NCBI GenBank assembly: GCA_035527155.1
Contig: DATLBB010000074.1
Location: 1,029-65,028 of the forward strand
Reading direction: 5' to 3'
Source of the DNA: Sedimentisphaerales bacterium
GTDB lineage: Bacteria; Planctomycetota; Phycisphaerae; Sedimentisphaerales; Anaerobacaceae
Length of the DNA stretch: 64,000 nucleotides
This document shows, piece by piece, positions 5,601 to 61,547 of this stretch. The notes beneath the pieces are model-generated. The model saw only the letters and a program-made list of their open reading frames with translations, ran no database searches and was not told the origin of the DNA. The translations under genes were made by a program, and so were the position numbers. Within the stretch, counting starts at the first letter, position 1. Every line of letters starts with the position of its first letter.

Positions 5601-5902
5601 CGTCACTGCAGGGGACACTTGCCGATGCGGTAGAGGTGTTGCTTGAGCCGGAGAGCTTAAAGAATGAGAACATGAAAAACGCTCTATTGAAAAAGATAGA
5701 TGCAGCGCTGAAGATGATTGAGGAAGGAAACTACACCGGTGCTCTGAGTAAACTCCGAAATGACATTTTAGCAAAGATGAACGGATGCGGCGAGAAGGGT
5801 GAGCCTGACAAAAACGACTGGATAATAACGTGTGAAGAACAAAGCGAGCAATATCGGCTTGTTATGGAGACTATCGAATATGTAAAAAGCCTTATGGAGT
5901 AA
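2609..5902 (+). CDS. Secreted or surface GLUG-motif repeat protein with an FN3-like domain
   Basis: AAGGAG upstream; signal-peptide-like N-terminus. About 20 copies of the NCY(S/A)TG.VSG...VGGL(V/L/A)G unit. Two FWD(I/V).TSGQ..S.GGTG....EMQ...F..AGWDF modules. FN3-like segment EPEVTLETSNTIYWEPVPGANEYY...WYSVKARN. Confidence 0.85.
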   Translation: MDRWVVLIVTVVLVVGVVGSTAQGKYGGGTGEPNDPYLIYTAEQINEIGLNEDDWNKCFKLMADIDLSGFTGTSFNIIGYCVDSWEDDKPFTGVFDGNGHTISNFSYTSTDIDYIGIFAYVNDFEAAIKDLGLIDPDVDAGTGCFVGSLVGWFRGGTITDCYVDGAAVAGTEGVGGLVGQNGICYHADECHGGKMSNCYSTGTISGYSAVGGLVGKSNGGTIYNCYSDSIVSGTTGIGGLLGDNEEGAIFNSYSHSGVSGNDQVGGLLGSNHWGTVSSSYSTGGVSGDDQVGGLAGYNSGGGVASSFWDIQTSGQATSAGGTGKTTAEMQDPSTFMDAGWDFVGKVDGPHDVWAEPAGGGYPILCWQLPHFFGLPGFSGGLGTNDEPYLISTANELNSIGHNPRLMVAHFKLIDDIDLTGTDLFLIGSELFPFRGVFDGNGRKISNFTYSSTDADQIGLFKYVYGENALIKDLGVIAPDVDVGRGYYVGSLVGRLFEGKVTNCYVQGGSVSGNFCVGSLVGDNNRGTLTNCHATGEVSGYFYVGGLLGQSYYGTINNCDSEADVYGGHYAGGLLGYNDWGSTINNCHTTGTVSGDGYVGGLVGDNFATISNCNTTGTVSGNGSVGGLAGESSYGKITNCYAVGEVRGGDFAGGLVGDNSSTMTNCYADGDVSGEYNVGGLAGRHSYRTMTNCYATGDASGTGWSVGGLVGHNYSGTISNCYAKGTASGNMYVGGLAGWNQKGTISHCYSTGGASGTRSNVGGLVGSNYGGATINNCYSTGSAAGNEDVGGFAGSNNSTITNCYSTGGVSGHSDVGGLVGENYKGKIANSYSIGSVTGHSDAGGLVGWNYRGEISASFWDVNTSGQTTSDGGTGLVTNEMQIRSTFEGAGWDFNTPVWTIDEGVDYPRLWWELTPVLHTEPEVTLETSNTIYWEPVPGANEYYAECAEDANFTSILYNTGWITETSYEFTGLELGQQYWYSVKARNAEGTETNWSNVESSLQGTLADAVEVLLEPESLKNENMKNALLKKIDAALKMIEEGNYTGALSKLRNDILAKMNGCGEKGEPDKNDWIITCEEQSEQYRLVMETIEYVKSLME

Positions 5903-5971
5903 AGGCTGGATTAAAATAGCAACGGAGAATCGCAGCAATAATCGCCTCGTAACATTGGTAATCGGTCGGCA

Positions 5972-35998: not shown

Positions 35999-37516
35999 AT
36001 GACAGTGGCAACGAATTCGAATCCTTACCAGAGGAGTGTGGAATTAGCCGAACACGGCGATTATCCGGAAGCTCTCGCTTGTGCTCAAGAACATCTTCGT
36101 ACAGCACCGGAGGATGTGCAGGCGCTGAACGACGCAGGAGCAATTCTGTATTGCCTGGGCCGCCCCGATGAAGCCATCGACCATTTCGTCAAAGCCAGGA
36201 GTTTGCATGGCGGCTCTGCCGAGATATTGCGGAACCTGGTAGAAGCATATCTTGCCGTCGGCAAAGCAAACGAAGTTATACAGCTTTTTGATGATATGGA
36301 GCAGATGGGCATATTGAACACGGACATACTTAACAGAATCGCCAACGCACTCCTGGACCAGGATAATAAGGGCGGCGCTATCGAAATTCTGCAACAGTCA
36401 CTCCAAATCGCCCCCGACCAGAAAATCCTCGAACCGATGATAGAAGTAATCCGTTCTAAAATGCCGAAGGTGTCTTTTTTCTGCGGCGGCGATGGTATGA
36501 GGTCTCTTAACGAAATTACCAAATTTATAAAACGGCGCTTTGAAGTACATCTTTTTGAGGACCAGACAGAAAAAGAACTGTATGAATCGATGAAATCCAG
36601 CGACATCTGCTGGTTTGAGCAGTGCGCCAATCTCGCAGTAACAGCCTCGAAGATGCCGAAAGTTTGCTCTGAAATTATAAGACTGCAGCACCACGAAGCC
36701 TATAAGCAGTGGCCCAAAGAAGTTAACTGGGCCAATATCGACATCCTTGTTACTGTCGGCAACAGCTTTTTCAGGGACGCTCTTACCCAAACGGTCCCTA
36801 AGCTCGATGAGTCAACGTCGATAGTTACTGTTCCCAACGGTGTAAATCTCGAAAAATTTGCATTTACAAATCGCCAACGCGGCAAAAATATTGCCTTCTT
36901 GGGCAATCTGGGAATGGTAACGAATCCCGCTTTTGTCCTGCAGTGTATGCAAAAGCTGCACTACATCGACCCGGAGTACCGTTTGTTCTTTGGCGAACAA
37001 TTTGCGGATGCGGCTCTCGAACAATATCTAAGGTATATGGTTGATGCTCTTGGGCTTCGTGATGTAGTGTTCTTTGCCCCCCCTGCTTTCCTGCGAAAGC
37101 AAGAAGGCGGCGCCGAAGATGTGGACTGCTGGCTTGAGGACAAACACTACATCGTTTCCACCAGCATCATTGAAGGCGATGGTATGGGGCTGCTGGAAGG
37201 TATGGCTTGCGGCCTGAAACCGGTTATCCATAACTTTCCAGGCGCCGAGCAGGCGTTTCCATCCGAATTCCTGTTTAACATCTCCGAAGAATTCTGCGAG
37301 CAGATTCTTTCCGATAAGTACGAACCACAATGGTATCGCAGATTTGTTGAGGAAAACTATCCGCTGGAAAACCAGTTGATAAATATCAACGACATTTTCA
37401 CACAGCTTGAACCTGAAAGCGTGACCGGCGACTCGTGGTCCGGGTCGCAGTCCCAGGGGGGACACCTCTCGGTGGATGCAGAACACAGGATACCAGTCAT
37501 GAGTTACCAGTCATAA
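35999..37516 (+). CDS. TPR + GT-B (GT1/GT4-type) glycosyltransferase
   Basis: N-terminal TPR helices (AEHGDYPEALACAQEHLRTAPEDVQALNDAGAILYCLGRPDEAIDHFVKA). C-terminal glycosyltransferase signature STSIIEGDGMGLLEGMACGLKPVIHNFPGA. Confidence 0.8.
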   Translation: MTVATNSNPYQRSVELAEHGDYPEALACAQEHLRTAPEDVQALNDAGAILYCLGRPDEAIDHFVKARSLHGGSAEILRNLVEAYLAVGKANEVIQLFDDMEQMGILNTDILNRIANALLDQDNKGGAIEILQQSLQIAPDQKILEPMIEVIRSKMPKVSFFCGGDGMRSLNEITKFIKRRFEVHLFEDQTEKELYESMKSSDICWFEQCANLAVTASKMPKVCSEIIRLQHHEAYKQWPKEVNWANIDILVTVGNSFFRDALTQTVPKLDESTSIVTVPNGVNLEKFAFTNRQRGKNIAFLGNLGMVTNPAFVLQCMQKLHYIDPEYRLFFGEQFADAALEQYLRYMVDALGLRDVVFFAPPAFLRKQEGGAEDVDCWLEDKHYIVSTSIIEGDGMGLLEGMACGLKPVIHNFPGAEQAFPSEFLFNISEEFCEQILSDKYEPQWYRRFVEENYPLENQLININDIFTQLEPESVTGDSWSGSQSQGGHLSVDAEHRIPVMSYQS

Positions 37517-45040: not shown

Positions 45041-45072
45041 ATTAATCGCCTGCCCTCAGAACGGCGATTAAT
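45041..45072 (-). terminator. 10-bp perfect hairpin overlapping the stop codon of the distal motB paralogue (possible terminator)
   Basis: ATTAATCGCC-N12-GGCGATTAAT, followed on the minus strand by TTTCTCT. The T-tract is weak. Confidence 0.3.
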
Positions 45073-45776
45073 ATCTGTGTCTGTTTGGAAATCGGGCTAT
45101 CTTGCCCTACCCAGTCGCCGCCGGGTCCCGCCCCCCACGAATAAACAGGCCAATTGGAGGCTGAAGGCAAAGTATCCCGCAGGAAGTCAGCCACTACCTG
45201 GGCCCGCCCTGCTGACAGTATCCACTGCTGTTTCTCAGCAGCTTCATCGCGAGCCAAGCCAAGCACGTAGAGCTTGATGGCCTCATCACTCCGGTCATGC
45301 TGTAAATCCAGGCAAAATTCGGTCAAAAACCTCTTTGCCGGCCCATTCAAGGTTGCTTCGCCCGGAGGAAAGCGAACATTGGTTACTGAAAAATTGGTTT
45401 TTTTTGCCACTATTTGTGAAGGCATAGTCTCCATAGACCGCTGTACTTCTTTAAAAAGTCGACGAATCTCTTCTTCTTTTGCGTGTATGGTCCTGCCGGG
45501 GAATTGCTTATCAGGAGTTTCTATGAAGTATTTGATTTTAACACTGCCGAATTCAGGCGCTCGCTTTCTGCTGTAAAGCATGCCAAGTCCGAGCTCTTTC
45601 ATAGATTGCATAAATGAACCCCGGCCTTTGTAAAATAATTCCGGGTCCATCACATTCGCCAGACCCAGCAGCATCACAAAGAATGTCAGCAACAGCGTCG
45701 TTATATCTGAAAATGTAACGATATAGGCCGGGACTTTTGGGCCTTCTGACTCGGCTGACTTCTTCTGAGGGCTCAA
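45042..45776 (-). CDS. motB: MotB-family stator protein, distal paralogue
   Basis: PAYIVTFSDITTLLLTFFVMLL (TM segment with conserved Asp). OmpA-like C-terminus with WILSAGRAQVVADFL. Confidence 0.8.
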   Translation of the reverse strand: MSPQKKSAESEGPKVPAYIVTFSDITTLLLTFFVMLLGLANVMDPELFYKGRGSFMQSMKELGLGMLYSRKRAPEFGSVKIKYFIETPDKQFPGRTIHAKEEEIRRLFKEVQRSMETMPSQIVAKKTNFSVTNVRFPPGEATLNGPAKRFLTEFCLDLQHDRSDEAIKLYVLGLARDEAAEKQQWILSAGRAQVVADFLRDTLPSASNWPVYSWGAGPGGDWVGQDSPISKQTQILIAVLRAGD

Positions 45777-46468
45777 TTGTAAATACTCCGTTCTAATAAA
45801 ACTATCTCGAGCATGTGTTCCGGTTCCCCCGCAGCAATTGAGCTTATGCTCGCGCCTAACTGGTGCGGGGCAAGAGTGCTTTCTGCTGAGATGCTGAACC
45901 GTTTCCTGTCAAGGTTTTGTTCTGTTGTAAGATACTTTAACACCGCCCATGCCCTGGGCAGACCAAACTGCCCACGGCCCCGGTCGTCGTCCGGCCCATT
46001 TTCGCTGATTACTACGCGGTTAGGCATCTCTTTTAAGAATGATGCCAGGATGGACATAATATTGCGACCTTCAGCCGAAATTGCTGTGCCTTTAGCCCAA
46101 AAAATTCTTTTAGATTCGATTAAGAATACCTTCTGACGTTGGAAATCCACAGGGTCTGTTTCTTGTTTTGTTCTCTCCTTAGTTCCCCTGACTAAAGTAG
46201 GTTTTTCGCTGCCTTCGTCCAGCTTATCCAGTTCCTGGATTCGCTTTATAGGCACAAAAGCATCCGTATCCTTTTTGGCTTTCGGAGTCGCCGCAGGCAG
46301 AGCATCGGCGAAAATTACTTTTAATTGCTGAAAGATTGCCTTATCGAAGGATGAAAAACTCAAAAGAAGTACAAAAAACGTCAGCAGAAGCGTCATACAA
46401 TCACTAAAAGTGACCATCCATTCCGGTGCACCCGGAGTATCATCGTCCTCGGACTGTCTTTTCCTCAT
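45773..46468 (-). CDS. motB: MotB-family stator protein, proximal paralogue
   Basis: PEWMVTFSDCMTLLLTFFVLLL (conserved Asp). The OmpA-like C-terminus is more degenerate (FGLPRAWAVLKYL). The ATG overlaps the motA stop (TAATG). Confidence 0.8.
   Translation of the reverse strand: MRKRQSEDDDTPGAPEWMVTFSDCMTLLLTFFVLLLSFSSFDKAIFQQLKVIFADALPAATPKAKKDTDAFVPIKRIQELDKLDEGSEKPTLVRGTKERTKQETDPVDFQRQKVFLIESKRIFWAKGTAISAEGRNIMSILASFLKEMPNRVVISENGPDDDRGRGQFGLPRAWAVLKYLTTEQNLDRKRFSISAESTLAPHQLGASISSIAAGEPEHMLEIVLLERSIYN
45827..45870. repeat. Copy of the 44-nt hairpin element inside the proximal motB 3' coding region
   Basis: CCCCGCAGCAATTGAGCTTATGCTCGCGCCTAACTGGTGCGGGG aligns with 44814-44857. It encodes APHQLGASISSIAAG. 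Confidence 0.75.
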
Positions 46469-47242: not shown

Positions 47243-47959
47243 CTACTGTACCTCGGTTATTTGTTTCAATCTCCGGCACAAAAGAGCTGCAAGTGTGGGC
47301 TCAGAAGTGACTAACTCAGCTAATACCTTGGCTTTTGTCCTTTCGGTCATATAGTGCAGAATCTTCACGGAGTCATCGAGGCTGGCGGCCGCCCATACAA
47401 CATCAGTACCTTGTACTTGTTTTGTACACATATTCGTCAATATTTTACCGGCACTGCTGGAGTCCATCTTGTCATAAGTGGCGGCTATTTTTACCAGGTT
47501 GGTCTTTTCGTCACGGGCAACCCCAACTCTGGTCTGAAGCAGCTTATCGCGCTGCTCCTTGAGACTTGCAACGATTGAAGCAAGCTCAATTCGCAGATTA
47601 TTGAGGTCCTCGATGTCCTTTTTTAACGTATCCTGAGCGATTCGCAGTCTCTGCTCTCGTTGCTCAAAGGTCTGCAGCTTATTGTCATACTCCTGCATCT
47701 TTTGGCGGACCTCAAAGACAAGACTCTTGAGCCGTTTTTCCGTCATAGTTTTCCTTGTCACGTCATCCACAGTACCAACGGTGCCTATCGGCTGCGGCAG
47801 CCCCGGCTTGGCAACGGAATCGGAGGCAGTAAGTTCGGGCTGACTCGAGTCATCGCTCGCCCTTACCGGCGCTGCTTTAGTAAGCCATGCCAGGAGGAAC
47901 GCTCCAACAAAGCTTACCAGCCCCGCTGCCGCTATCATTATTATTAGTTTCTTACTCAC
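47243..47959 (-). CDS. YlxF/MotE-like protein (TM segment + coiled coil + MgtE-N-like C-terminus)
   Basis: TM segment LIIMIAAAGLVSFVGAFLLAWL, coiled coil, then KIAATYDKMDSSSAGKILTNM...SVKILHYMTERTKAKVLAEL. It holds the same post-fliJ position as B. subtilis ylxF. Confidence 0.55.
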   Translation of the reverse strand: MSKKLIIMIAAAGLVSFVGAFLLAWLTKAAPVRASDDSSQPELTASDSVAKPGLPQPIGTVGTVDDVTRKTMTEKRLKSLVFEVRQKMQEYDNKLQTFEQREQRLRIAQDTLKKDIEDLNNLRIELASIVASLKEQRDKLLQTRVGVARDEKTNLVKIAATYDKMDSSSAGKILTNMCTKQVQGTDVVWAAASLDDSVKILHYMTERTKAKVLAELVTSEPTLAALLCRRLKQITEVQ

Positions 47960-48013: not shown

Positions 48014-48487
48014 TCAACTCTTGTTATTGCTTACTCTTTCCCGCTGTATCATATTTCGAGCGAATGAAACTGAAGCCGTCTCGTCTAATTCTTTCTGTTC
48101 AAGTTTCTCCTGTTCCTTTATAAATTGCATTTTTGCTTCGGCCCTTAACCTTTCCAAACCTTCTTTAAACTTTCTGACCTTTAAAAGCTCGGCAATCTTC
48201 TCTCTCTGTCGTGATTCCAGCTCGCTCGTTTTTTCTTTGAGTTTTTTAACCTGCTCATCACTTGTCCCAGAATATCTCAAGAAGAATTCCTGCCTTCCTA
48301 ATCGCTTCTTAGGATTTTCCTCTGCCAAACCAGCGATTACATCCTCCAATATTCTCTGCTGCATGAGCAGCCGGCCTCGTGTCTCAGCGAGCATTTCGGT
48401 CAGCTCAAGCAGTTCTGCTCTCATTTTTTGCTCCTTCTTTGTCTTTATGTCGAGGACGCGCTGCAAACGCCAAACAAATCGCTTCAT
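48014..48487 (-). CDS. fliJ: Flagellar export stalk protein FliJ
   Basis: 157 aa, all coiled coil. FVWRLQRVLDIKTKKEQKMRAELLEL N-terminus. Positioned after fliI. Confidence 0.75.
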   Translation of the reverse strand: MKRFVWRLQRVLDIKTKKEQKMRAELLELTEMLAETRGRLLMQQRILEDVIAGLAEENPKKRLGRQEFFLRYSGTSDEQVKKLKEKTSELESRQREKIAELLKVRKFKEGLERLRAEAKMQFIKEQEKLEQKELDETASVSFARNMIQRERVSNNKS

Positions 48488-48501: not shown

Positions 48502-49863
48502 TCAACTCTCGGTATTTAACAGTTGGTCCCACGATTGTGTAATAGCAGTCAACCGGCTGACAGTTTCTTCGAAATCGGTTCTCTCTCGAACAGGCTGAAT
48601 GAGAAAGGTGTTTATCCTTTCAATCAGGGCTATCGCCCCATCGATACGCCGATTGCTGCCCGCTGAAAACGCACCAATGTTTATTAAATCTTCAGCGTCA
48701 ATATAAATGGCATATATTTCTTTGAGCTTCTGTGCAGCAAGCTGGTGTTTTTTGCTCGTCACCGCCGGCATGAGTCGGCTGATGCTTTGTAAAATATCGA
48801 CAGCAGGATAATGTCCCCTGTCAGCCAATTTTCTTGACAGCACTATATGGCCATCCAGCAGACTCTTGGCACTATCAGCCACAGGGTCAGTCAAATCATC
48901 GTTTTCAACCAGGACTGTCAGAATACCTGTGATGCTGCCGGTCTCGGCACAGCCCAGACGTTCGATAAGTCTCGGCATCACCGAAAAAACGCTCGGACAG
49001 TAGCCCTTTGTGGCCGGCGGCTCACCCGCTGCAAGGCCTATTTCCCGTTGTGCCTGTGCAAACCGCGTAAGTGAGTCCATCATAAATAAAACGCTCATGC
49101 CCCTGTCCCTGAAGTACTCGGCTATTGTAACAGCTACGAATGCCGCCTTTACCCGCTGAATGGGAGGCGAATCCGATGCGGCAACGACGACAACACTGCG
49201 TGCCAGGCCCTCTGCACCAAGGTCGGCCTCGAGAAATTCGCGGACCTCTCGCCCACGCTCGCCTATCAACGCCACAACATTGACGGCAGCATCGCTCGAA
49301 TTGGCAATATCGCCGAGCAGAACACTCTTGCCCACTCCGCTGCCCGAGAAGATGCCTATTCGCTGCCCCCTGCCGCAGGTCAATACCCCGTCCATTGACC
49401 TGATGCCTAAAGCCAAAGGACGTGTAATCTTTTCGCGACTCAAAGGTGGCGGACTGCCTGCATCCAATAGCTTCTTGTCCGTCCCTGCTAACGGTCCCTT
49501 ACCATCGATAGGCTCTCCTAACCCATTTACGACTCTACCGAGAATGCTTTCGTTTAGACTAATATAGCGTGGGGTAGTTCTTGCAGTTACCGTATCGCCC
49601 GGTGATATGCCCTCTATATGCTCTAAAGGCAGCAGGATAAAGTGGTCGTTCTGGAAACCTACGACCTCAGCGAGCACTCGCCGGCCATCGCGAAGATGGA
49701 TACCGCAAAGCTCACCTAAGCCCACTACCGGACCATTAGATTCAATCGTCAGACCTGTGACCCGCACAACCGAACCGCGGCAATCTAACAGATTCACATC
49801 CTGCAGTGCCGAGTGAAATTTCTCAAAATCAATTGAGCATTTACTAAGCTGATTCGCAGTCAT
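48502..49863 (-). CDS. fliI: Flagellum-specific ATPase FliI
   Basis: Walker A GIFSGSGVGKSVLLG, Walker B VLFMMDSLTRFA, and an F1-beta-like sequence throughout. Confidence 0.95.
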   Translation of the reverse strand: MTANQLSKCSIDFEKFHSALQDVNLLDCRGSVVRVTGLTIESNGPVVGLGELCGIHLRDGRRVLAEVVGFQNDHFILLPLEHIEGISPGDTVTARTTPRYISLNESILGRVVNGLGEPIDGKGPLAGTDKKLLDAGSPPPLSREKITRPLALGIRSMDGVLTCGRGQRIGIFSGSGVGKSVLLGDIANSSDAAVNVVALIGERGREVREFLEADLGAEGLARSVVVVAASDSPPIQRVKAAFVAVTIAEYFRDRGMSVLFMMDSLTRFAQAQREIGLAAGEPPATKGYCPSVFSVMPRLIERLGCAETGSITGILTVLVENDDLTDPVADSAKSLLDGHIVLSRKLADRGHYPAVDILQSISRLMPAVTSKKHQLAAQKLKEIYAIYIDAEDLINIGAFSAGSNRRIDGAIALIERINTFLIQPVRERTDFEETVSRLTAITQSWDQLLNTES

Positions 49864-50407: not shown

Positions 50408-51409
50408 CTATCGCCCCACCATTCTAAGTTTGCCCTGCTCATTGGCTTCCCGCAGCGGCACGACAACTTCCTCTCTCGCATCAAGAACTTCTTTTTCCAG
50501 CGGCTCCTGCATCAGTGAAGCTTCTTCATCAAGCATAGCCGCAGCCCGCTCAGATATATTTGAGCGTATCTTTTGCGCGATCTCATCATCCGCCCCATAA
50601 AGCGCAACCGCCAATTTGCCTGAATCCACGGTTCGCAGCGCTTCCTGCAGAGACCTGTCAGCTACTGACCGAATATCTTCCCAGGTTACCATCAAATTCC
50701 TCACCGTCTTACCGGTTTCCTCATCGTGTTTGCCTATCTCACCAACCAATTGGTCTCGCAGGTCTCTCTCCAGACCACTTAGCATAATAGCAAGTTTTCG
50801 CAGATTTTGTTCCCGTCTTCCAGGTCTTATGACAAGGGTCTCTCCTTTGAGATCCCTCAGCCGCTCGTTAACCATAGTTGCCATCCGCTGCCTCACTTCA
50901 GCTCCCAGCACATCCGGATTGGTCATTTTGCAGACGGCTTTTAGACGAACTTCTTCACCCAAAAGTGACAGAACCTCCTGGCTTTTCTGGGGAGACAGCT
51001 CCGACAGTACGACAGCAACGGTCTGTGGGTGTTCACCCTCCAGTGCAAGAACCAATTCGTCGGTGCTGGCCGAACGAATATTCATAAACAGGTCTTTGTT
51101 TACCATAACTTTTTTAATCTGAGATTGAATTTGCTTCGCCTGCTCTTTGCCAAGGATGCTTACAAGCATCTCGCCGAGAAAAGTTTTTATGTTAAATGCC
51201 TGAGTCTGACTATCCTGAAGTGATTTACAGAACTCCTGGATGACCCTTGCTTGTTCCCTGGTATCGTGCTGCTCCGCTGCATCAATTCGCGCAAGCTCTA
51301 TGGCAATCTCCTGAATCTCTTCGGGTTCGAGCCCCTTGAGCAGCTCGGCAGCAGTCGGGGTATCCAGACTCATCAACAGCATCGCAGCTTTTTGCCTACC
51401 CGTCAGCAT
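50408..51409 (-). CDS. fliG: Rotor/switch protein FliG (canonical-looking copy)
   Basis: GRQKAAMLLMSLDTPTAAELLKGL, EHPQ motif, MVTWEDI, and the charged torque helix ISERAAAMLDEEASL. Confidence 0.9.
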   Translation of the reverse strand: MLTGRQKAAMLLMSLDTPTAAELLKGLEPEEIQEIAIELARIDAAEQHDTREQARVIQEFCKSLQDSQTQAFNIKTFLGEMLVSILGKEQAKQIQSQIKKVMVNKDLFMNIRSASTDELVLALEGEHPQTVAVVLSELSPQKSQEVLSLLGEEVRLKAVCKMTNPDVLGAEVRQRMATMVNERLRDLKGETLVIRPGRREQNLRKLAIMLSGLERDLRDQLVGEIGKHDEETGKTVRNLMVTWEDIRSVADRSLQEALRTVDSGKLAVALYGADDEIAQKIRSNISERAAAMLDEEASLMQEPLEKEVLDAREEVVVPLREANEQGKLRMVGR

Positions 51410-51416
51410 TACTTAC

Positions 51417-52487
51417 TTAATCCCTCTCATTCATCTCGCGCAAAACGTGGACAATTTCCTCTCTTGCTTCTTCAACATCTTTGTTCCCGCCGGCTGATAC
51501 ACACGATACTTCCTCATCCGGTAGGGTGGGTTTTAGCCCACAAATTATCGCAGTCGCTCGCTCGGAGATATTAGACATTATCTTTTGCACGAGCGAATAG
51601 TCGGCCCCGACCAATGCCAAGGCTAATTTCCTTTCATCAACTCGACTCAAGGCCCTTTGCAGCAATCTGTCAGCCACTTGCGGTATATCTTCCCAGAGTA
51701 TCGTAGGGGCGGTTCGTGAACTGCCCGTACTCCTCCTTTCACGACTCGACGACTCGACTGAGCTCGCCGAAGTTTGAGCTCGCCGAAGTCCGGCTTTGTC
51801 GTCTTTTCGCTGCACTGCACCAAGCAGACAATCTCGAAGCTCTCCGCCCAGGTTTCGCAAAATCACGGCGACCTTCCTTAAAGACCGTTCAAGGCGAGTT
51901 GGTAAAGCTTCACTTGTGTTATCGACCGTAACGGCATCGAGACGCTCGCACACCGTCTCTGCCATCCTCGCCTTTGCTTGCGCCGTCATATTCTCACAAG
52001 TGGTCATCCTGCTGACGACACTGAGCCGGATACCCTCGCCTAAAAGGTTGAGTACATCGGAGCTTTTCTTTGCCGGCAGTCCTGATAAAACGGCAGCAGC
52101 AGCCCGAGGGTGCTCTCTCTTCAGGACCGAGGCGAGCGTTCGCGAATCAACGAAGCGAATACGTGTAAAAGGGTCGCGTATCTGTAGCAAATTCCGTATC
52201 TGTGTCTGGATGTGCTCTGCTTTCTCATCGCCGACCGTACTTTTCAGCATTTCCTTCAAGAAGCTCTTATGTTGAAATCCTTCTTCGGCCTGAAGCGAAT
52301 TGCAAAACTGCCGGGCAACTTGGGTACTCTGCTTATCTCTGCGATAACCGGCGGCATCCAGATATGCCAATTCCATTGCCACTTCCTGAACAAGGTCGGG
52401 TTTAACACCTTTGAGCAGTTCAGCGGCAGTAGCAGCATCGAGGCTCATCAATAGCATCGCAGCTTTCTGTTTACCCGTCAATGCCAC
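51417..52487 (-). CDS. fliG: FliG paralogue (divergent C-terminal helix, internal insertion)
   Basis: GKQKAAMLLMSLDAATAAELLKGV, EHPR, ILWEDI. The torque-helix region reads ISERATAIICGLKPTL. There is an extra segment of roughly 22 aa within AGLRRAQTSASSVESSSRERRSTGSSRTAP. Confidence 0.85.
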   Translation of the reverse strand: MALTGKQKAAMLLMSLDAATAAELLKGVKPDLVQEVAMELAYLDAAGYRRDKQSTQVARQFCNSLQAEEGFQHKSFLKEMLKSTVGDEKAEHIQTQIRNLLQIRDPFTRIRFVDSRTLASVLKREHPRAAAAVLSGLPAKKSSDVLNLLGEGIRLSVVSRMTTCENMTAQAKARMAETVCERLDAVTVDNTSEALPTRLERSLRKVAVILRNLGGELRDCLLGAVQRKDDKAGLRRAQTSASSVESSSRERRSTGSSRTAPTILWEDIPQVADRLLQRALSRVDERKLALALVGADYSLVQKIMSNISERATAIICGLKPTLPDEEVSCVSAGGNKDVEEAREEIVHVLREMNERD

Positions 52488-52491
52488 TTAC

Positions 52492-53997
52492 TTAAGCCTC
52501 CCTTTCTTCGATCCAACTGGCAAACACTTGCCTGACCTGGCCAGGTTTACTCCGCAAGGCATCAGCTATTTGTCTACGCAACACTAATGACTCAGGTTTC
52601 TCACCTCCAGATGGAAGAAGGCCACCAGGTCCGGCAGCCCCGGGCAATTGCCCTGCCTCCGATGTAACCTTTCTCCTGGCACCTCTGAACATCCGAAGAA
52701 CAAGCAGCGCACAAACGGCCATAATCCCCAAAGATGTATGGCGAGCAATTGCCATATAACGAGGCCAATTGGACGGTTCCTGGTCAACGAGCGCATCAAC
52801 ATCAGGGCGATGAAACTTGACGTTAACCACTTTCAGCGAGGCATTCTCCTTAAGACCAAGTGCATTTCTAATAATCTGTTCCACATCAGATAACTCCATT
52901 ATCATTGCGCTACCGCCGCCGGCCCCTCCTTCATTGGCATCGGCCACCGATAAGTCAACAAAAGCAGCAACGGAAAGAGACCTTATTTCGCCAGGCAGAA
53001 CAATCTCCTGCTTCACAGTTCTTCCAACCTCGTATTCTGTAATAATTGTTTCGTCCTTCTTTGTGCTGCCGGTTGCAGCCGGCGAGCCGGACGCTGACGC
53101 AGTCCCGGGCTCTGTCTCCGAACCAGTTGTAATCTCTTCCTTCGAGGCTACTTTTGCGATTGGGTCGTAAGTTTCCGTTGCTATATTGACGCTGTTCATA
53201 TCAATAACGGCACTGACCCTCACGGTTGCCCGGCCAGGGCCTAAAACAGCGGTGAGCATATCTTCGACCTTGTTGGCCAAATTCTGCTCCACCCTCTCCC
53301 TGTAATCCTGAACGGTCCCCGCCCCGCTGGCCAGAGTTTGGTCCGACTGACTCGAAAGAAGACGTCCCTGACCGTCTATCACGGTTACATTTTCAAATGT
53401 CAGTCCCTCAACACTGCCGGACACTAAATGTGTAATTGCCGCAATGTTCAAGGAGCTTAATCTGTAACCCGGCTTTAGTCGAAGAACCACTGAAGCAGTG
53501 GTCTTACCGGCCTCAGGTGTAAAAAGCGTCTGCTCAGAGGTTACAATATGGACTCGCGAGTGAACAACCCCATCTATCATTTGGATACTCTTGGCAAGTT
53601 CTTCCTGCAGTGCCCGCTTGAGGTTAACGTTTTGAACGAATGGGCTGACGCCGATTTTTTCATTATCAAATATTTTGTAACCACCCTGCTCACCTACAGG
53701 AAGTCCCTCTCTTGCCATATCCAGACGAAGCTGGTAGACCTTTTCTTTCGGAACGTAGATACTTGTCCCGCCATTTCGCAATTCGTAAACGATAGACTTG
53801 TCATTGATTTTTTCCGTAATCTTGGACGCTTCTTCCGGGGACAGTTGCTGATAGAGCATTCTCAGGTCCGGTCGTCGTGCCCAGTTAGTGAGCAGCGCAC
53901 CAATCACAATAAAGGTCAGAACAATGGCAATCAACAAAGCCCGCTGAACAAGGCTTACCTTTTGCCAAACTGCTGCTATCTTCTGAAAAAAGTTCAT
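52492..53997 (-). CDS. fliF: MS-ring protein FliF
   Basis: N-terminal TM segment, LRMLYQQLSPEEASKITEKINDKSIVYELRNGGTSIYVPKEKVYQLRLDMAREGLP, and a second TM segment near the C-terminus. Confidence 0.9.
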   Translation of the reverse strand: MNFFQKIAAVWQKVSLVQRALLIAIVLTFIVIGALLTNWARRPDLRMLYQQLSPEEASKITEKINDKSIVYELRNGGTSIYVPKEKVYQLRLDMAREGLPVGEQGGYKIFDNEKIGVSPFVQNVNLKRALQEELAKSIQMIDGVVHSRVHIVTSEQTLFTPEAGKTTASVVLRLKPGYRLSSLNIAAITHLVSGSVEGLTFENVTVIDGQGRLLSSQSDQTLASGAGTVQDYRERVEQNLANKVEDMLTAVLGPGRATVRVSAVIDMNSVNIATETYDPIAKVASKEEITTGSETEPGTASASGSPAATGSTKKDETIITEYEVGRTVKQEIVLPGEIRSLSVAAFVDLSVADANEGGAGGGSAMIMELSDVEQIIRNALGLKENASLKVVNVKFHRPDVDALVDQEPSNWPRYMAIARHTSLGIMAVCALLVLRMFRGARRKVTSEAGQLPGAAGPGGLLPSGGEKPESLVLRRQIADALRSKPGQVRQVFASWIEEREA

Positions 53998-55496: not shown

Positions 55497-55816
55497 GCCG
55501 GCCGTTTTCAATCCGTTAACCGGCTTAACTTTGCTAAAAACCGCCTAAAACTCAAATAACCGCCTATTTACTGCTTCACACAGACGTCCGGTTTCTATAC
55601 AAGCGCGTGGTTTTTTTAACAGGCCCACACCCGCCCGCCGTAACGCCTTTTCCCTGCACCTCAATTGAGCCGGAAATTCTTTCCCTTCCTAAGGAATATT
55701 TCTCCGCAACAACAGCTAACAGCCGGTCATTTAGGACCAATCGTTATCTTTTCAATTTCCATAAATCCTTTATTATTAGGCAGTTATCATCTAACAAAAG
55801 CCTTTTTTGCGACTAC

Positions 55817-55832
55817 TGGCACGCCGCTTGCT
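55817..55832 (+). promoter_or_regulatory. Sigma-54 promoter (TGGCAC-GCCGC-TTGCT) for fliK
   Basis: Perfect consensus, 34 nt upstream of ATG 55866 and divergent from the flgB promoter. Confidence 0.7.
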
Positions 55833-55865
55833 CAAAATACATTGGTTTTTTATAGGGATTGCTGT

Positions 55866-57581
55866 ATGAACAGCCACTTGTTGGCAATTGATAATATGTT
55901 CGCAAAAACAAGCGCTGCCGGTCCAGTTCCGTCAAAGCCCGCAGCAGTCAACAAAAGCGAGCAATTTTCCCCAAATCCACTTGATAATGCACCTTTCAGT
56001 AATGACCGTGGAACAATAACGGTCGACAATACCTTTGTTACTCCCCAAAACGGGCTCAAGAATGAACCTTCGCGACAGTTTAGCCATACGCTTCGCAAGG
56101 AAATTACGACTAAAGTGCCCCAGAAAGCTAATGATAGCCGAAATGCAAAAGGGCAAAACCAGGCCGTCCAGCCAGGCATAGCCCAGCTTTGGTTGGCTCA
56201 ATACTCCTTAAACACGGAGCAAGGCAAAGAAGGAATTGCCAGAAAAGTAGGGCCTAAGGCCGGATATGAACTTGCCCAAATGCTGACCAACTTAAGACCG
56301 GACATAATTCCTTCCGGAGCCGGAAAAACTGCCAAACTACACAAAAACGAAGCCCTTTTAACCATAGACCAAGGCCAAATCGGGTTCAAAGCCACTTCAC
56401 ATATGACTTCCAATCAAGGTGGAAACACGAGCACAATACAGTCATCCAACAGAACATTACTTATGACAAAAGGCCTTAACAGCCAGGAAAACGGCAAAGA
56501 ATTGATCCCTGAAACTCTTGTTGAAGCCGGCAACAAAATAACCACTGCCAGTAACAAACCTGCCATCGCAGGCAAGCCAGTCGTTGGCGACGGCCAGAAA
56601 GTATCGACATTGAATCCCAACTCCCCACCGGTTCAGGACAAATCCTCTGATCTTCAGTCCCAACTTGTCGGGCTTGGTCCGGAAAAATCGCCACTAATGG
56701 CCGAAAAGGCAGTATTGAATCCCAACTCCCCGCCGGTTCAGGACAAATCCTCCGGTCTTCAGTCTCAACTTGTCGGGCTTGGTCCGGAAAAATCGCCACT
56801 AATGGCCGAAAAAGCAGTTGACATCAAAATCAATCCCGTTCTGCAAGATCAAGTAGTCTCCGACGATGGCGTAAAGCAGGGCGACAAATCCCCAGCGAAC
56901 CATGCCTTCCAGATGCTGCATCGTCCGCAACTCCAGGTATCCACCGGCCAAATAAAAGACCGCGGCAGCTCGACCTCCAATAATAGCTCCAATTCAGGTT
57001 TCGAGCAGATGCTCTCTGCTAATAACGCCCAGAGTGCCATTGCAGAGCAATCATCCGCGTTTCCCGAGGCCGCAAAGGCCGATAATCTGCCATCTCAGAC
57101 TTCGCCCAGCACTGACTCTGCGAGCATTACCGACCAGATTCTGGAATCTATTCACAGCTCTTTACGCCAAGGCGACCAGCAAATCAGCATCCGGCTCAAT
57201 CCACCTGAGTTGGGGAAGGTATTGATAGAATTCAAGCAGCAGGAACACGAAATCACCGGCTTATTGGAAGTCAGCAAGATACAAACCAAATATGAGGTTG
57301 AGCAGGCACTGCCGCAGATAATCCAAAACCTTGCAGATTGCGGCATCGAGATAAAGCGGCTGGAAGTCATGCTATCTGATGGGGAACAATCAGAGCAACA
57401 GGCCCTTAAAGACCAATCGCTACAAGACGGCTGGGCCCAGCAACAAGACCCGGCGAATCAAAGTGCGGGGGCAAACAACACACCTGCCAACGAAAGGCTG
57501 ACAAACGACAATAGTTACGCCGGATTAAACGAACTACAGGAGATGTTTGTCACCAATCATTCAATAAACATACTGATATAA
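55866..57581 (+). CDS. fliK: Hook-length control protein FliK
   Basis: C-terminal Flg_hook-type domain QQISIRLNPPELGKVLIEFKQQEHEITGLLEVSKIQTKYEVEQALPQIIQNLADCGIEIKRLEV, with a long Pro/Gln/Ser-rich ruler region. ATG 55866 was chosen because the sigma-54 promoter lies inside the longer ORF that starts at 55665. Confidence 0.75.
   Translation: MNSHLLAIDNMFAKTSAAGPVPSKPAAVNKSEQFSPNPLDNAPFSNDRGTITVDNTFVTPQNGLKNEPSRQFSHTLRKEITTKVPQKANDSRNAKGQNQAVQPGIAQLWLAQYSLNTEQGKEGIARKVGPKAGYELAQMLTNLRPDIIPSGAGKTAKLHKNEALLTIDQGQIGFKATSHMTSNQGGNTSTIQSSNRTLLMTKGLNSQENGKELIPETLVEAGNKITTASNKPAIAGKPVVGDGQKVSTLNPNSPPVQDKSSDLQSQLVGLGPEKSPLMAEKAVLNPNSPPVQDKSSGLQSQLVGLGPEKSPLMAEKAVDIKINPVLQDQVVSDDGVKQGDKSPANHAFQMLHRPQLQVSTGQIKDRGSSTSNNSSNSGFEQMLSANNAQSAIAEQSSAFPEAAKADNLPSQTSPSTDSASITDQILESIHSSLRQGDQQISIRLNPPELGKVLIEFKQQEHEITGLLEVSKIQTKYEVEQALPQIIQNLADCGIEIKRLEVMLSDGEQSEQQALKDQSLQDGWAQQQDPANQSAGANNTPANERLTNDNSYAGLNELQEMFVTNHSINILI
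56610..56819 (+). repeat. 2 x 105-bp in-frame tandem duplication in the fliK ruler region
   Basis: Units at 56610-56714 and 56715-56819 differ at about 5 positions. They encode LNPNSPPVQDKSS(D/G)LQSQLVGLGPEKSPLMAEKAV twice. Confidence 0.95.
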
Positions 57582-57675: not shown

Positions 57676-60543
57676 ATGGGTCGAAATACAAAATTAAAGC
57701 GTTCGCACCGCCAAAAGAAGAAAAAGAAGAAACAAATGATGAGACAGTCCCCCAGCTCCAGGAGAGGCTGTTTAGATAATGACGAAGTGCAATTTACCAT
57801 TTCCAAAGACGGTCAGATACACGTTAGAGCATCTGAAGGCAAACTGCCGAAATTTTTAGTCAAAGCGCAGGATGCCGTGAAGTCCGGTCGAATCGAAGAA
57901 GCTCGCGCTCTTATCACTGATGACAATATCGAAATTGTTCGTAAGATGATAAAGAAGGACCCCTCAAACATCGGTGCAATGTATATGCTTCCAGTGATTT
58001 TAGTTGCTCTCAGAAAGTTTAAAAAGGCAGAGGAATGGTACGAGAATATTCTAAAAATTAAGCCGAATTGGGCCGTGTATAATGAGCTGGCAAATATCAA
58101 CCGAAAGAAACAGCAATATGCAAAGGAATTGGAATATCGCCAGAAAGCCCTCGAGGAAAATCCTGATAGCGGTATTTTGCTCAATAACTATGGAATGCAC
58201 CTGCTCCGAATAGGTCGTACCGAAGAGGCCAAAGAAATATTGATAAAAGCAGTCGAAAAAACCGCTTTCAACCCCCTAGTTCATTCTAATCTGATATTGT
58301 ATATGCATTACCTGCCGGAAATAAACCGCAGCGAGCTTTTTGAAGAGCACAAGCACTGGGCCCGGGTTCAGGCTCCTGTAACTTTGGCAAGAACATCTCA
58401 CGACAATGTCCCCGACCCCGACCGCCGGCTTCAAATCGGTTACATCTCACCTGATTTTAATTCACATCCGGTCCCACATTTCTTTGAAATACTACTCGAC
58501 GAGCAGAATCACCAGGGGATAGAGATCTTTGGATATAGCAACGTTGACTACCCTGACGCAGTTACCGAACGTCTAAAATCAAAGCTCGACCACTTCCGAA
58601 ACATCTGGGGTGTTGACGACCAGAAGGTCGTCGATATGATTCAAAAGGACAAAATCGATATTTTGGTGGACCTTGCCGGCCACACGGGCAACAATCGTCT
58701 GCCTGTGCTGGCACACAAGCCGGCTCCAATCCAGGTTACTTACCTCGGATTTCCCGATACGACCGGAATGGAGCAGGTCGATTATCGTTTTACAGACGAA
58801 TTGGCCGACCCGCCTGAATCACAAAAATTTCACACTGAGGAACTTATCTATCTACCGGATGGCTTTCTCTGCTACAAACCTGTCGATTTTGCACCGCCGG
58901 TAGGACCTCTACCGGCACTCAAGAATGGTTATATCACCTTCGGCTCTTTTAATAATAACTGTAAGATAAACCCGCTTATTATAGCAATCTGGGCTGAAGT
59001 TCTAAAAGTAAATGAAAATTCCCGCTTTATAATCAAGTTCAGAGGTGGACAAGACAAAATGCTGCAGAATCATTATTACAGCGAGTTCGAAAAGCTTGGT
59101 ATCGACTCTGATAGGATAGAAATCCATGGCGGAAAAAAGCCTGTTGAACATCTGAATATGTACAACCAGATTGACATTGCCCTGGATACCTATCCTTACA
59201 ATGGTACGACAACAACTTTCGAGGCCTTATGGATGGGCGTACCCCTAATCTCGCTGGTCGGGCAGCATCACATGTCCAGAGTCGGGTTGACGATATTGAC
59301 CCGTTTTGGTATGGGGTTCCTGGCGACCTCGACGCCTCAGGAGTATGTTATCAGGGCCACTGCGCTTGCAGCGAAACGAGAGACCCTTGCAGAAATGCGC
59401 GCTATAATGCGAAGGACAATAGCCGGCGCTTCATTGTGCAATACAAACAGGTTCGTTAGAAATGTGGAAGCTGCCTATCGAGAAATGTGGCACCGATGGT
59501 GTCGAGGCCGCGGCGTTGAGGTTGCTGCTAAGCAAGTTACTTCGGATGACCAAAGCGGCAGTGCCGATGCAGAAATCCATTCTGTAACCTCCGTTGAGCC
59601 GGCCCCTGAACAGTTGGAGCAGAGGACACCGAGAAACTCATTAGAAAAGCCCCCTGTCCGTATCTTTCACAACCTTGCCCGCGCTGGGGGAACACTTGTC
59701 TGCAAGTGCCTGGGCTGTATGAACAACATAGTACTTTTGAGCGAAATTCATCCACTCGGCAGCGCATACTTCAATCCTGTAACGCAGGCCCACAAGTGGC
59801 ACAATCTTCTGACGACGGAGGATATCCACACCCTCAGCGAGAAGAAAAACGTCGATTTCGTTGAAGCTATCAGCCTCATTGAGAGCCGCTGCGCCGAGAC
59901 CGGACGGAGCCTCGTAATTCGCGACTGGGGACATCTTGACTTTATAGCCGTGCCCTTCCTCAAGCAGCCGGGATATAAAATGATGTTGGCCGATGCGATT
60001 AAACCTGCTTTTGAAGTCCTACAGCTCGCACTCGTGCGGCATCCCCTGGACCAGTGGCTCAGCTTGAGCAAGCTTGCGCTTATGCACGGGAAATTAACCG
60101 TTGAGATGTTCTTGCGGGGATACCTGAGGTTTGCCGAACACAGCGCCAGGATTGGGTTTGCCCGTTACGAAGACTTTACTTCCGAGCCTGCCTGGCAGAT
60201 GAAAATCATTTGTGAAAAACTGCAGCTTGATTTCGATGAGGACTTTATCAATAAATGGTACGATTATGAAAAAATCACCGGCGATACAGGGAAACAATCC
60301 CGCGGCGCAAAACTTGGTCTGATTCAACCGCTTCCACGGCTGCCGGTGCCGCCGGAGCTTCTAAAACATTTCCACAAAAACGACGACTACTGGCAGGCGA
60401 TAGAACTGCTTGGTTATCCGGACGCCGAACAAGGCATATCCTCTGCCCCACACACAACGATTTCAATAAGTGCACCGGCAGTCAGCTCTGCCGAGAAGAC
60501 AGCGGATAGGAACTCTCCGAGGAACAAAAGCAGCACCTTATGA
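57676..60543 (+). CDS. TPR + GT41 (SPY/OGT-like) glycosyltransferase + C-terminal sulfotransferase-like domain fusion
   Basis: TPR units at residues ~60-220. GT41-like IGYISPDFNSHPVPHFF...DILVDLAGHTGNNRLPVLAHKPAPIQVTYLGFPDTTGM...FGSFNNNCKINP...ALDTYPYNGTTTTFEALWMGVPLISL. The C-terminal ~300 aa carry PAPS-binding-like motifs HNLARAGGTLVCKCL (5'-PSB) and VRHPLDQWLS (RxPxDxxxS, 3'-PB). Confidence 0.8.
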   Translation: MGRNTKLKRSHRQKKKKKKQMMRQSPSSRRGCLDNDEVQFTISKDGQIHVRASEGKLPKFLVKAQDAVKSGRIEEARALITDDNIEIVRKMIKKDPSNIGAMYMLPVILVALRKFKKAEEWYENILKIKPNWAVYNELANINRKKQQYAKELEYRQKALEENPDSGILLNNYGMHLLRIGRTEEAKEILIKAVEKTAFNPLVHSNLILYMHYLPEINRSELFEEHKHWARVQAPVTLARTSHDNVPDPDRRLQIGYISPDFNSHPVPHFFEILLDEQNHQGIEIFGYSNVDYPDAVTERLKSKLDHFRNIWGVDDQKVVDMIQKDKIDILVDLAGHTGNNRLPVLAHKPAPIQVTYLGFPDTTGMEQVDYRFTDELADPPESQKFHTEELIYLPDGFLCYKPVDFAPPVGPLPALKNGYITFGSFNNNCKINPLIIAIWAEVLKVNENSRFIIKFRGGQDKMLQNHYYSEFEKLGIDSDRIEIHGGKKPVEHLNMYNQIDIALDTYPYNGTTTTFEALWMGVPLISLVGQHHMSRVGLTILTRFGMGFLATSTPQEYVIRATALAAKRETLAEMRAIMRRTIAGASLCNTNRFVRNVEAAYREMWHRWCRGRGVEVAAKQVTSDDQSGSADAEIHSVTSVEPAPEQLEQRTPRNSLEKPPVRIFHNLARAGGTLVCKCLGCMNNIVLLSEIHPLGSAYFNPVTQAHKWHNLLTTEDIHTLSEKKNVDFVEAISLIESRCAETGRSLVIRDWGHLDFIAVPFLKQPGYKMMLADAIKPAFEVLQLALVRHPLDQWLSLSKLALMHGKLTVEMFLRGYLRFAEHSARIGFARYEDFTSEPAWQMKIICEKLQLDFDEDFINKWYDYEKITGDTGKQSRGAKLGLIQPLPRLPVPPELLKHFHKNDDYWQAIELLGYPDAEQGISSAPHTTISISAPAVSSAEKTADRNSPRNKSSTL

Positions 60544-60674: not shown

Positions 60675-61547
60675 ATGGATACAAGACAAAAGTTAAGGCA
60701 AATAATGAAAGATAACTTCGCCTATAAAAATGTAGTTGACAAGTATAAGGAAACTTTCGAGATGGATATCAAGAAATTGATAGGCCAGACTGATCCCGAC
60801 GTTGAAGGCTTCAAAGATTACGAAGAACAACGTGACTTATCGGTGAAATTTGCGTGGGGGCATAACCATGACTTTGGCAACTTTGCCCTCGAAGGCAAAA
60901 TGGCTGACAGACATATCGAAATCATTGCTGATTTTATAGACAACTTCGCCCTTCCGTACGATTTAAGCGGAAAGAAAGTCCTTGATGTCGGAGTATGGAC
61001 GGGCGGTACGAGTCTGATTCTTTCTGCATTAGGCGCAGAGGTCACAGCTCTGGAAGAAGTGGTAAAGTACTCAAATACGGTCAATTATCTTGCCTCTGCT
61101 TTTGGGATCTCAAATTTGGAATGCAAACCTCATTCCTTGTATGAACTGGATGTTAGTGACGCTTATGACTTTGTCATATATTCGGGAGTAATATATCACG
61201 TCTCAGACCCCATATTATCACTGCGTGTCTTGTTCAACTCTCTGAAGGATAACGGACGGATATTTGTTGAGACTTACGGTATGCCAGGCAATAGTGAAAA
61301 AGTACCAGTTTTACTGTTTCTCGGACCACAGTTCATAACAAAAGGCTCCAAAAAGGATTTGACTCGGAGTGGATGGAATTACTTTGTTCCATCTCCTGTC
61401 GTACTGTACCTGTGGGTGGCCACCGTTGGCTTTGATGATATAACGGTCGGTAATCTCGATTCTTTCAAGCGAATCAAGTGCGCTGCCACTCGACATCAGC
61501 ATAAGGATATGTTGCGAGCAGGATTGTCTCGACCTAACATCCGATAA
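60675..61547 (+). CDS. Class I SAM-dependent methyltransferase
   Basis: Motif I KVLDVGVWTGGTSLILSALGAEVTALE, followed by YDFVIYSGVIYHVSDP. Confidence 0.8.
   Translation: MDTRQKLRQIMKDNFAYKNVVDKYKETFEMDIKKLIGQTDPDVEGFKDYEEQRDLSVKFAWGHNHDFGNFALEGKMADRHIEIIADFIDNFALPYDLSGKKVLDVGVWTGGTSLILSALGAEVTALEEVVKYSNTVNYLASAFGISNLECKPHSLYELDVSDAYDFVIYSGVIYHVSDPILSLRVLFNSLKDNGRIFVETYGMPGNSEKVPVLLFLGPQFITKGSKKDLTRSGWNYFVPSPVVLYLWVATVGFDDITVGNLDSFKRIKCAATRHQHKDMLRAGLSRPNIR

Follow-up and report, generated by a model that had tools for sequence, protein, structure and literature searches.

Two adjacent fliG paralogues in one flagellar operon of Sedimentisphaerales, the upstream copy with an interrupted torque helix

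The 64,000-nucleotide (nt) stretch of contig DATLBB010000074.1 analysed here as a whole, which we call the window, comes from a Sedimentisphaerales bacterium and carries a cluster of flagellar genes in which fliG is present twice. FliG is the rotor protein that receives the force of the stator, and the charges of its torque helix are among the best-conserved features of the motor. The genes on the minus strand follow the order flgB, flgC, fliE, fliF, fliG-A, fliG-B, fliH, fliI, fliJ, a gene of 238 amino acids (aa), motA, two copies of motB, fliOPQR and flhB. The MS-ring gene fliF (52492-53997, 501 aa) was recognised by the Pfam families YscJ_FliF and YscJ_FliF_C. It is followed by the upstream paralogue fliG-A (51417-52487, 356 aa, GTG start), a 7-nt spacer from the stop of A to the start of B (GTAAGTA, 51410-51416) and the downstream paralogue fliG-B (50408-51409, 333 aa, ATG start). 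These coordinates agree with an earlier note on this DNA, which had described two FliG open reading frames (ORFs) of these lengths lying head to tail between fliF and fliH. The window also contains fliD, flagellin, flgK, flgI, flgA, flgF/G, flgE, fliL, one fliM-like gene and flhA, and encodes a sigma-70-family factor together with two sigma-54 activators. It thus holds one flagellar system, in which FliG and MotB only are doubled.

Both fliG products exceed the curated (gathering) cut-offs of the Pfam families FliG_N, FliG_M and FliG_C, and they are 44% identical to each other. The FliG_C match of A is partial, covering profile positions 21-103 with 50 bits, as against 97.5 bits for B. The FliF-binding N-terminus, the EHP(R/Q) motif and the WEDI motif, which the earlier note had listed as common to the two copies, are indeed found in both. 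Homologues of fliG-A were retrieved at 56-86% identity, and one Sedimentisphaerales metagenome-assembled genome (MAG) carries an annotated protein identical to A. For fliG-B, a phmmer search of the PDB returned the FliG structures 3hjl, 1lkv and 8umd, and more than 120 homologues of 322-337 aa at 71% identity or above were found among the matches listed. By their sequences, A and B both belong to the FliG family, and A lacks one of its marks, an Arg and an acidic pair in register on the torque helix.

To number the torque-helix residues we used FliG of E. coli K-12 (NC_000913.3), in which the positions R281, D288, D289, K264 and R297 were verified. According to Lloyd and Blair and to Zhou et al., the charges R281, D288 and D289 of this helix reportedly contact MotA. 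Aligned to the K-12 protein, B has Arg288 at the position of R281 and Glu295 and Glu296 at those of D288 and D289, all in register, as had been proposed for the downstream copy. The core of its torque helix is encoded at 50522-50548 on the minus strand, with Arg288 at 50546-50548 and Asp294-Glu295-Glu296 at 50522-50530. In A, the equivalent of R281 is Arg310 (51558-51560), and Asp324-Glu325-Glu326 (51510-51518) correspond to E. coli positions 287-289. Between them lies a 24-nt insertion, TGTGGGCTAAAACCCACCCTACCG (51519-51542), which encodes CGLKPTLP (residues 316-323) inside the torque helix. Both BLASTP and MAFFT placed these eight residues between ERATAII and DEE; after them, the spacing from DEE to AREE is 14 residues, as in B. 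The claim that the upstream copy lacks the acidic pair was therefore wrong, since Arg310 and the DEE at 324-326 are both kept and have been pushed apart by the insertion. The earlier note had held that a proper alignment placing acidic residues on the torque helix of A would overturn its reading. Such residues were found there, and they are off-register: R310 and E325/E326 are split by an eight-residue segment containing Pro and Gly.

We then examined AlphaFold2 (AF2) models of A. An alignment of 24 sequences gave a mean predicted local distance difference test (pLDDT) score of 56 and one of 147 sequences a mean of 66, the gain being limited to the folded domains. In the latter model the middle domain reached pLDDT values of 84-92 and residues 262-318 values of 74-85. 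The helix starting at E309 stops at residue 317, and the DEE falls in a low-confidence coil or loop. Foldseek matched the model best to the FliG structures 3hjl, 8wo5 and 8umd (E ~1e-10), and the C-terminal domain gave a target-normalised TM-score of 0.72-0.81 against 1qc7, the C-terminal part of T. maritima FliG. Whole-chain TM-scores were low (~0.25), the relative positions of the domains not being modelled.

A second insertion lies directly before the M-x-x-W-E-D-I hinge, where residues 234-262 of A (51702-51788, LRRAQTSASSVESSSRERRSTGSSRTAPT) stand in for 7 residues of insert-free relatives, as measured by anchor-to-anchor lengths in a DNA alignment of six close relatives. The roughly 22 extra residues noticed earlier at this place are thus real (29 residues against 7), and so are the short tandem words reported within them: Tandem Repeats Finder and an exact-copy search identified two short tandem duplications at 51741-51789, an 8-nt unit repeated 2.2 times (51741-51758) and a 16-nt unit repeated 1.9 times (51759-51789). 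In the AF2 model this insertion and that of the torque helix are both coil with pLDDT below 50.

To place the pair among its relatives, one genome per GTDB species was scanned with A, and FliG ORFs were called in the 80 related loci. A tandem pair lies between fliF and fliH in about 28 of these roughly 80 loci, three contigs that end before B included, and a single fliG occupies the same place in about 50. All tandem carriers are Sedimentisphaerales-type MAGs. Both copies are thus conserved in related genomes, with the same synteny in about 28 species, which was one of the checks that had been proposed. The distribution also bears on the possibility that the tandem pair or its insertions arose by faulty assembly or binning. 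All sequences come from MAGs or metagenome contigs, some of them clearly mis-binned (L044, L048 and L062). Against such an artefact, the identical A with B adjoining is present in three independent assemblies (two from ENA and one from Logan), the same arrangement recurs in about 28 species from many projects, and an A-B identity of 44% is too low for a collapsed or expanded repeat. We therefore see next to no chance of an artefact, and the corresponding objection raised in the earlier note is excluded. Gene conversion between A and B was considered as well and found no support, their identity within the same genome being 36-52% per domain.

Two side observations concern these loci. The contigs assigned to Micrarchaeota (L044), Aegiribacteria (L048) and Ignavibacteria (L062) carry a Sedimentisphaerales-type fliF-fliG-A-fliG-B arrangement and are probably mis-binned. 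In L080 (2274-3300) the single fliG is frameshifted at about residue 233, which is probably an assembly error or else a real pseudogene; it was set aside.

Comparison of the copies across species revealed a marked difference in the constraint on A and B. The equivalent of R281 is Arg in all 49 single-copy FliGs and all 26 B copies and in 10 of 29 A copies, the other A copies having Pro (10), Gln (4), Thr (3), Met (1) or Ser (1). The D289 equivalent is likewise Glu in 49/49 single copies and 26/26 B copies and in 13/29 A copies, with Gln in 14 A copies, while the D288 equivalent is acidic in every single, B and A copy. The Arg and the Asp-Glu-Glu of the B torque helix are accordingly invariant in the 26 B copies. 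The middle-domain motif EHPQ(R), a contact for FliM, reads EHPR in the A and EHPQ in the B of the window; 26/26 B copies have its Gln, as do 25/29 A copies and 48/49 single copies. The view that the upstream copy is impaired for stator contact therefore stands in part: the argument from an absent acidic pair falls, and in its place comes the lack of conservation of the R281 and D289 equivalents across 25-29 species. Rates measured on the same genome pairs give A/B ratios of 1.04 for the N domain, 1.6 for the middle domain, 1.5 for ARM-C, 2.2 for C-alpha1-6 and 3.1 for the torque helix. In a 105-sequence alignment, every insertion of 8-53 aa sits in an A copy. Furthermore, in L029, a Phycisphaerae MAG related at 76% identity, fliG-A (5001-5914) ends after about residue 233 and thus lacks the C-alpha1-6 subdomain altogether; its fliG-B is intact. 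The L029 fliG-A has a low-complexity KTRNSKHEIRNKYE* in place of that subdomain and, in addition, a 13-residue insertion, DEPRPFEGRGEGF, in its N domain.

These features could suggest that A is a redundant duplicate heading for loss, the insertions and lost charges being signs of decay: A changes faster than B in all domains except N, its torque-helix residues drift, insertions occur in A alone and a subdomain has been deleted in L029. The selection acting on A speaks against this. Full-length A ORFs are kept in about 28 species, with A-A identities of 47-95%. The ratio of nonsynonymous to synonymous substitution rates (dN/dS, Nei-Gojobori method), calculated for 17 pairs drawn from five subclades, lies at 0.23-0.61 in A as against 0.13-0.32 in B; restricted to C-alpha1-6, the values are 0.18-0.70 (A) and 0.09-0.40 (B). 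Among the six closest relatives dN/dS amounts to 0.17-0.30 for fliF, 0.31-0.77 for A and 0.22-0.39 for B. In the same relatives, four hot spots of length change in A hold at least 13 distinct length states, all in frame and without stops, for which the chance expectation is ~3^-13. Finally, the new torque-helix sequences of A are conserved within subclades, for instance SNISEPMAVML in five genomes. A does not appear, on this sequence evidence, to be a pseudogene, and we regard decay as very doubtful. Decay, which would have undone the interpretation of the earlier note, is excluded for the lineage as a whole by dN/dS well below 1 and at least 13 frame-keeping length changes, with L029 as the exception.

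The origin of the pair was addressed with a neighbour-joining (NJ) tree, unrooted and without support values. The A copies make up a clade that lies within the single-copy FliGs, L034_A being the one outlier. All B copies fall into a single compact clade, which sits on a long stem, and the order of branching is largely the same in the A and B subtrees. Mean identities are 63% among A copies, 75% among B copies and 44% between A and B, with 57.5% between A and the single copies and 47% between B and the single copies. This would make A the orthologue, in overall sequence, of the single FliG of neighbouring lineages. Further information comes from the sequence upstream of B, which in the window (gagagggattaagtaag) is like the 3' end of fliF and the fliF-fliG junction of single-copy genomes. 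When this junction was compared in about 80 loci, most tandem genomes were found to keep agagggattaagtaag upstream of B, a sequence that shows the same resemblance.

The long branch of B outside most single-copy FliG diversity, and its mean identity to the single copies of 47% as against 57.5% for A, would also be compatible with a B acquired horizontally beside a resident gene that then became dispensable for torque. Against this, the sequence upstream of B is like the local junction between the end of fliF and the start of fliG, and the motifs GKQKAAMLLMSLD, the Cys of (Q/E)FC(N/K)SL and LM.xWEDI are common to A, B and the single copies. Moreover, the 120 listed homologues of B (at least 71% identity), where their source is named, are labelled as Planctomycetota, Phycisphaerae or Sedimentisphaerales with one exception, labelled Micrarchaeota. 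The tree pattern and the sequence resembling the fliF end agree better with a single tandem duplication, whose products were then inherited together, than with horizontal acquisition, which we consider very improbable.

With a probability that we put above even, fliG underwent a tandem duplication long ago in one sub-lineage of Sedimentisphaerales, and the copies then subfunctionalised, so that B transmits torque while A, its stator interface weakened, binds FliF and FliM. The duplication, within Phycisphaerae of the Planctomycetota, would have left two paralogues co-inherited in a single flagellar operon. B, which evolves slowly, would be the torque-receiving rotor subunit. In A, the FliF-binding N domain is as constrained as that of B, the FliM-binding middle domain moderately less so, and the C-terminal domain is under weaker, lineage-specific constraint. 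In the close clade of the window, A has taken up many in-frame insertions, several of them with palindromes like those of repetitive extragenic palindromic (REP) elements, one of which here splits Arg310 from Asp324-Glu326.

How the two products might share a rotor depends on the proteins around them. The FliG-binding C-terminal tail of FliF (...LVLRRQIADALRSKPGQVRQVFASWIEEREA) is single, and there is one motA and one fliM or fliM-like gene in the window. A duplicated FliG-binding motif in FliF was ruled out, as FliF tails are alike in tandem-fliG and single-fliG genomes. A and B would compete for the same FliF tail, and A may therefore be built into the assembly of the MS-ring and C-ring or nucleate it. 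A would then be a scaffold or assembly subunit whose engagement of MotA is poor or absent. We infer both the co-assembly of A with B and the loss of stator contact by A. The mixed or layered C-ring suggested in the earlier note is a putative consequence.

Alternatively, A and B might form separate homomeric rotors, used according to life stage, load or stator, instead of a mixed ring. The spirochaete paralogues FliG1 and FliG2 have been reported to differ in their roles, with FliG1 localised asymmetrically (PMC7225975). In the present locus two MotB proteins follow one MotA, and A and B differ strongly on the ARM-M and ARM-C surfaces that stack neighbouring subunits (36-39% identity). The gene arrangement argues the other way. 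A scan between fliG-A and fliG-B for promoters and terminators gave no signal above chance, and the two genes are co-transcribed; this and the 7-nt spacing within one operon make differential transcription of A and B unlikely. For both copies, the window also offers only a single FliF, a single motA and a single fliM-like gene. In addition, the motB pair is present in L004, a single-fliG genome, and thus does not co-vary with the fliG pair; a link between the two pairs is ruled out. Alternative homomeric rotors therefore seem quite unlikely to us. Decay of A, homomeric rotors, horizontal acquisition of B and an assembly artefact all rank below duplication with subfunctionalisation.

A more far-reaching version, which we hold to be unlikely, is that the C-ring is obligately heteromeric, with FliG-B and a stator-blind FliG-A on the FliF tails of one rotor, or that the C-terminal surface of A recruits another partner. 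This surface is remodelled, conserved within subclades and often Cys-tailed. If the heteromeric version held, MotA would push only some rotor positions, and rotor-stator engagement would have an encoded setting, serving as a clutch or an assembly scaffold. To our knowledge, engagement set genetically by a mixed FliG has no counterpart in model motors. As a separate observation, Cys-containing tails (ECDV, GCNA, ECNA, GCDI, WCEI) extend past the usual ...AFIEE in many A copies (L022, L033, L048, L050, L065, L067, L073); they are found neither in B nor in true single-copy FliGs, and the A copies of the window clade have lost the tail and end in NERD.

Several points weigh against duplication with subfunctionalisation. 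The loss of stator contact is not uniform: the Arg is kept in the A of the window and in 10/29 A copies, and in L001, L090 and L091, which are close relatives, A lacks the torque-helix insertion and its ERAAAxLDEE is intact. That A would enter the ring and fail to contact MotA is read from sequence, and the AF2 model of A, being of low confidence, is no more than suggestive at the insertion. The long branch of B near the root of the NJ tree may be a long-branch effect. B itself has also changed: Leu stands at the R297 equivalent in 26/26 B copies, where 46/49 single copies have Lys or Arg; Gly occupies position 265 in 25/26 B copies, against Lys in 31/49 single copies; and the acidic C-terminal tail F(I/V)EE became a basic xxGR in B. 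B is thus not the unchanged ancestor. Finally, translation of B may be coupled to that of A over the 7-nt gap, and this could account in part for the preserved frame in A; such coupling would leave the dN/dS below 1 in the C-terminal domain of A unexplained.

Among known systems, the single FliG of E. coli, Salmonella and T. maritima shares with the pair described here its three domains, the EHPQ motif and the position between fliF and fliH, and the charged triad is in register in B as it is there. The present locus differs in having two copies, in the A triad, which is interrupted here and replaced in most relatives, and in the Leu at the R297 equivalent and the basic C-terminal tail of B. 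The nearest precedent for the pair is FliG1 and FliG2 of spirochaetes. Their genes are found at separate loci. There, too, one flagellar system has two FliG paralogues, and theirs differ in role. In Borrelia burgdorferi and Treponema pallidum one of the two proteins is needed for flagellar synthesis, while the other is not and is asymmetrically localised (PMC7225975; PMC1943423). Unlike those of spirochaetes, the paralogues described here are adjacent between fliF and fliH, belong to another phylum and would have an independent origin. Bacillus thuringiensis carries fliG1 and fliG2 in one operon (PMC11511885), with the second at the far end of the operon and not next to the first. In dual flagellar systems each FliG lies within its own complete gene set, unlike the adjacent paralogues in one gene set seen here. 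The literature searched for fliG duplicates, tandem or otherwise, in Planctomycetota or Phycisphaerae yielded nothing relevant. For Planctomycetota, no description was found of fliG paralogues lying side by side between fliF and fliH, or of one whose torque helix is degenerate; the coverage was incomplete, which makes this weak evidence.

In about 28 species the operon thus retains a second FliG that is under selection and whose torque interface is free to change, through the replacement of charges, through palindromic insertions that keep the frame and split the helix, and even through the deletion of a subdomain. Such a pair would uncouple the torque role of FliG from its roles as a scaffold, in binding FliF and FliM and in assembling the ring, and provide a natural test of a rotor subunit unable to engage the stator. 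It makes testable whether C-rings can be heteromeric, how many stator-competent subunits a rotor needs and how a duplicated core part of a machine subfunctionalises.

The insertions themselves were also examined at the DNA level. In the DNA alignment of six close relatives, several inserted blocks in A contain palindromes with ends of the GTAG/CTAC type. An imperfect palindrome of the REP type, with a terminal GTAG/CTAC tetranucleotide, is present in the A of the window, and relatives hold cleaner copies. In the pre-WEDI segment, a palindrome scan located a 28-nt imperfect palindrome, GTACGGGCAGTTCACGAACCGCCCCTAC (51703-51730), which reproduces the perfect palindrome GTAGGGGCGGTTCGCGAACCGCCCCTAC in degenerate form. 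The torque-helix insertion has a hairpin GTGGG/CCCAC followed by CTAC, reading GTGGGCTAAAACCCAC plus CCTAC at 51521-51541; longer insertions at this place measure 54 nt in L088 and 51 nt in L089. The latter also holds a near-perfect 28-mer, GTACGGGCGGTTCGCGAACCGCCCCTAC. In L090, GTAGGGTGTGCAAAA(N4-5)TTTTGCACACCCTAC occurs four times in frame in fliG-A and once in the fliF-fliG spacer, giving five within about 1 kb (2952-3972).

We searched the 64-kb window for further copies of the inserted sequences and found none, and a hairpin scan of the same 64 kb detected GTAG-type palindromes nowhere outside the fliG-A insertions. A flood of REP elements in this region, which had been considered, is thus not shown. 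Across 924 kb of related loci, such palindromes were present only in L085-L090, at positions inside fliG-A genes. By contrast with this local confinement, at least 120 unrelated metagenome contigs match the degenerate pattern GGGYGGTTCNNGAACCGCCCCTAC, which covers the 28-nt palindrome. The perfect palindrome GTAGGGGCGGTTCGCGAACCGCCCCTAC is the commonest form in the 80 metagenome loci examined (L093-L172), none of which contains fliG (0/80). With GC contents between 0.25 and 0.72, these 80 loci point to a range of hosts that is unusually wide for an element of the REP type. The insertions in fliG-A would, to judge from these matches, be copies of widely dispersed REP-like elements accepted in frame.

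Rickettsia palindromic elements (RPEs) are said, following Ogata et al. 2000, to insert in frame into protein-coding genes. Like REP elements and RPEs, the fliG-A insertions are short palindromes with GTAG/CTAC-type ends, and like RPEs they are in frame and translated as an extra peptide in an otherwise conserved protein. The 28-nt palindrome is also widespread in metagenomes. Unlike them, the elements of the window have no other copies in 64 kb, and the insertions are clustered in one gene of one clade. They would represent a clear case, outside Rickettsia, of translated palindromic repeats within a conserved protein.

Downstream of fliG-B, Pfam matches and gene calls place fliH at 49867-50403/50484, fliI at 48502-49863 and fliJ at 48014-48487. 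The 238-aa gene between fliJ and motA (47243-47959) has no Pfam match; the same slot is filled by a gene of 231-244 aa in L001-L004, L085 and L086. Two MotB_plug genes in a row, of 231 aa and 244 aa, come after motA (45042-46468, minus strand), an arrangement also present in L001, L003, L004 and L085. On the plus strand, a divergent Flg_hook (FliK-like) protein encoded at 55665-57581 holds a tandem duplication of about 37 residues, NPNSPPVQDKSS(D/G)LQSQLVGLGPEKSPLMAEKAV, present twice. The flanks of the flagellar cluster carry genes for a 955-aa protein with tetratricopeptide repeats (TPR) and a Glyco_transf_41 domain, resembling O-GlcNAc transferase (57676-60543, plus strand), and for a methyltransferase (60675-61547, plus strand). 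Another TPR-glycosyltransferase is encoded between flagellin and fliD (35999-37516). The presence of TPR-glycosyltransferases and a methyltransferase around the flagellar genes suggests glycosylation of the flagellin.

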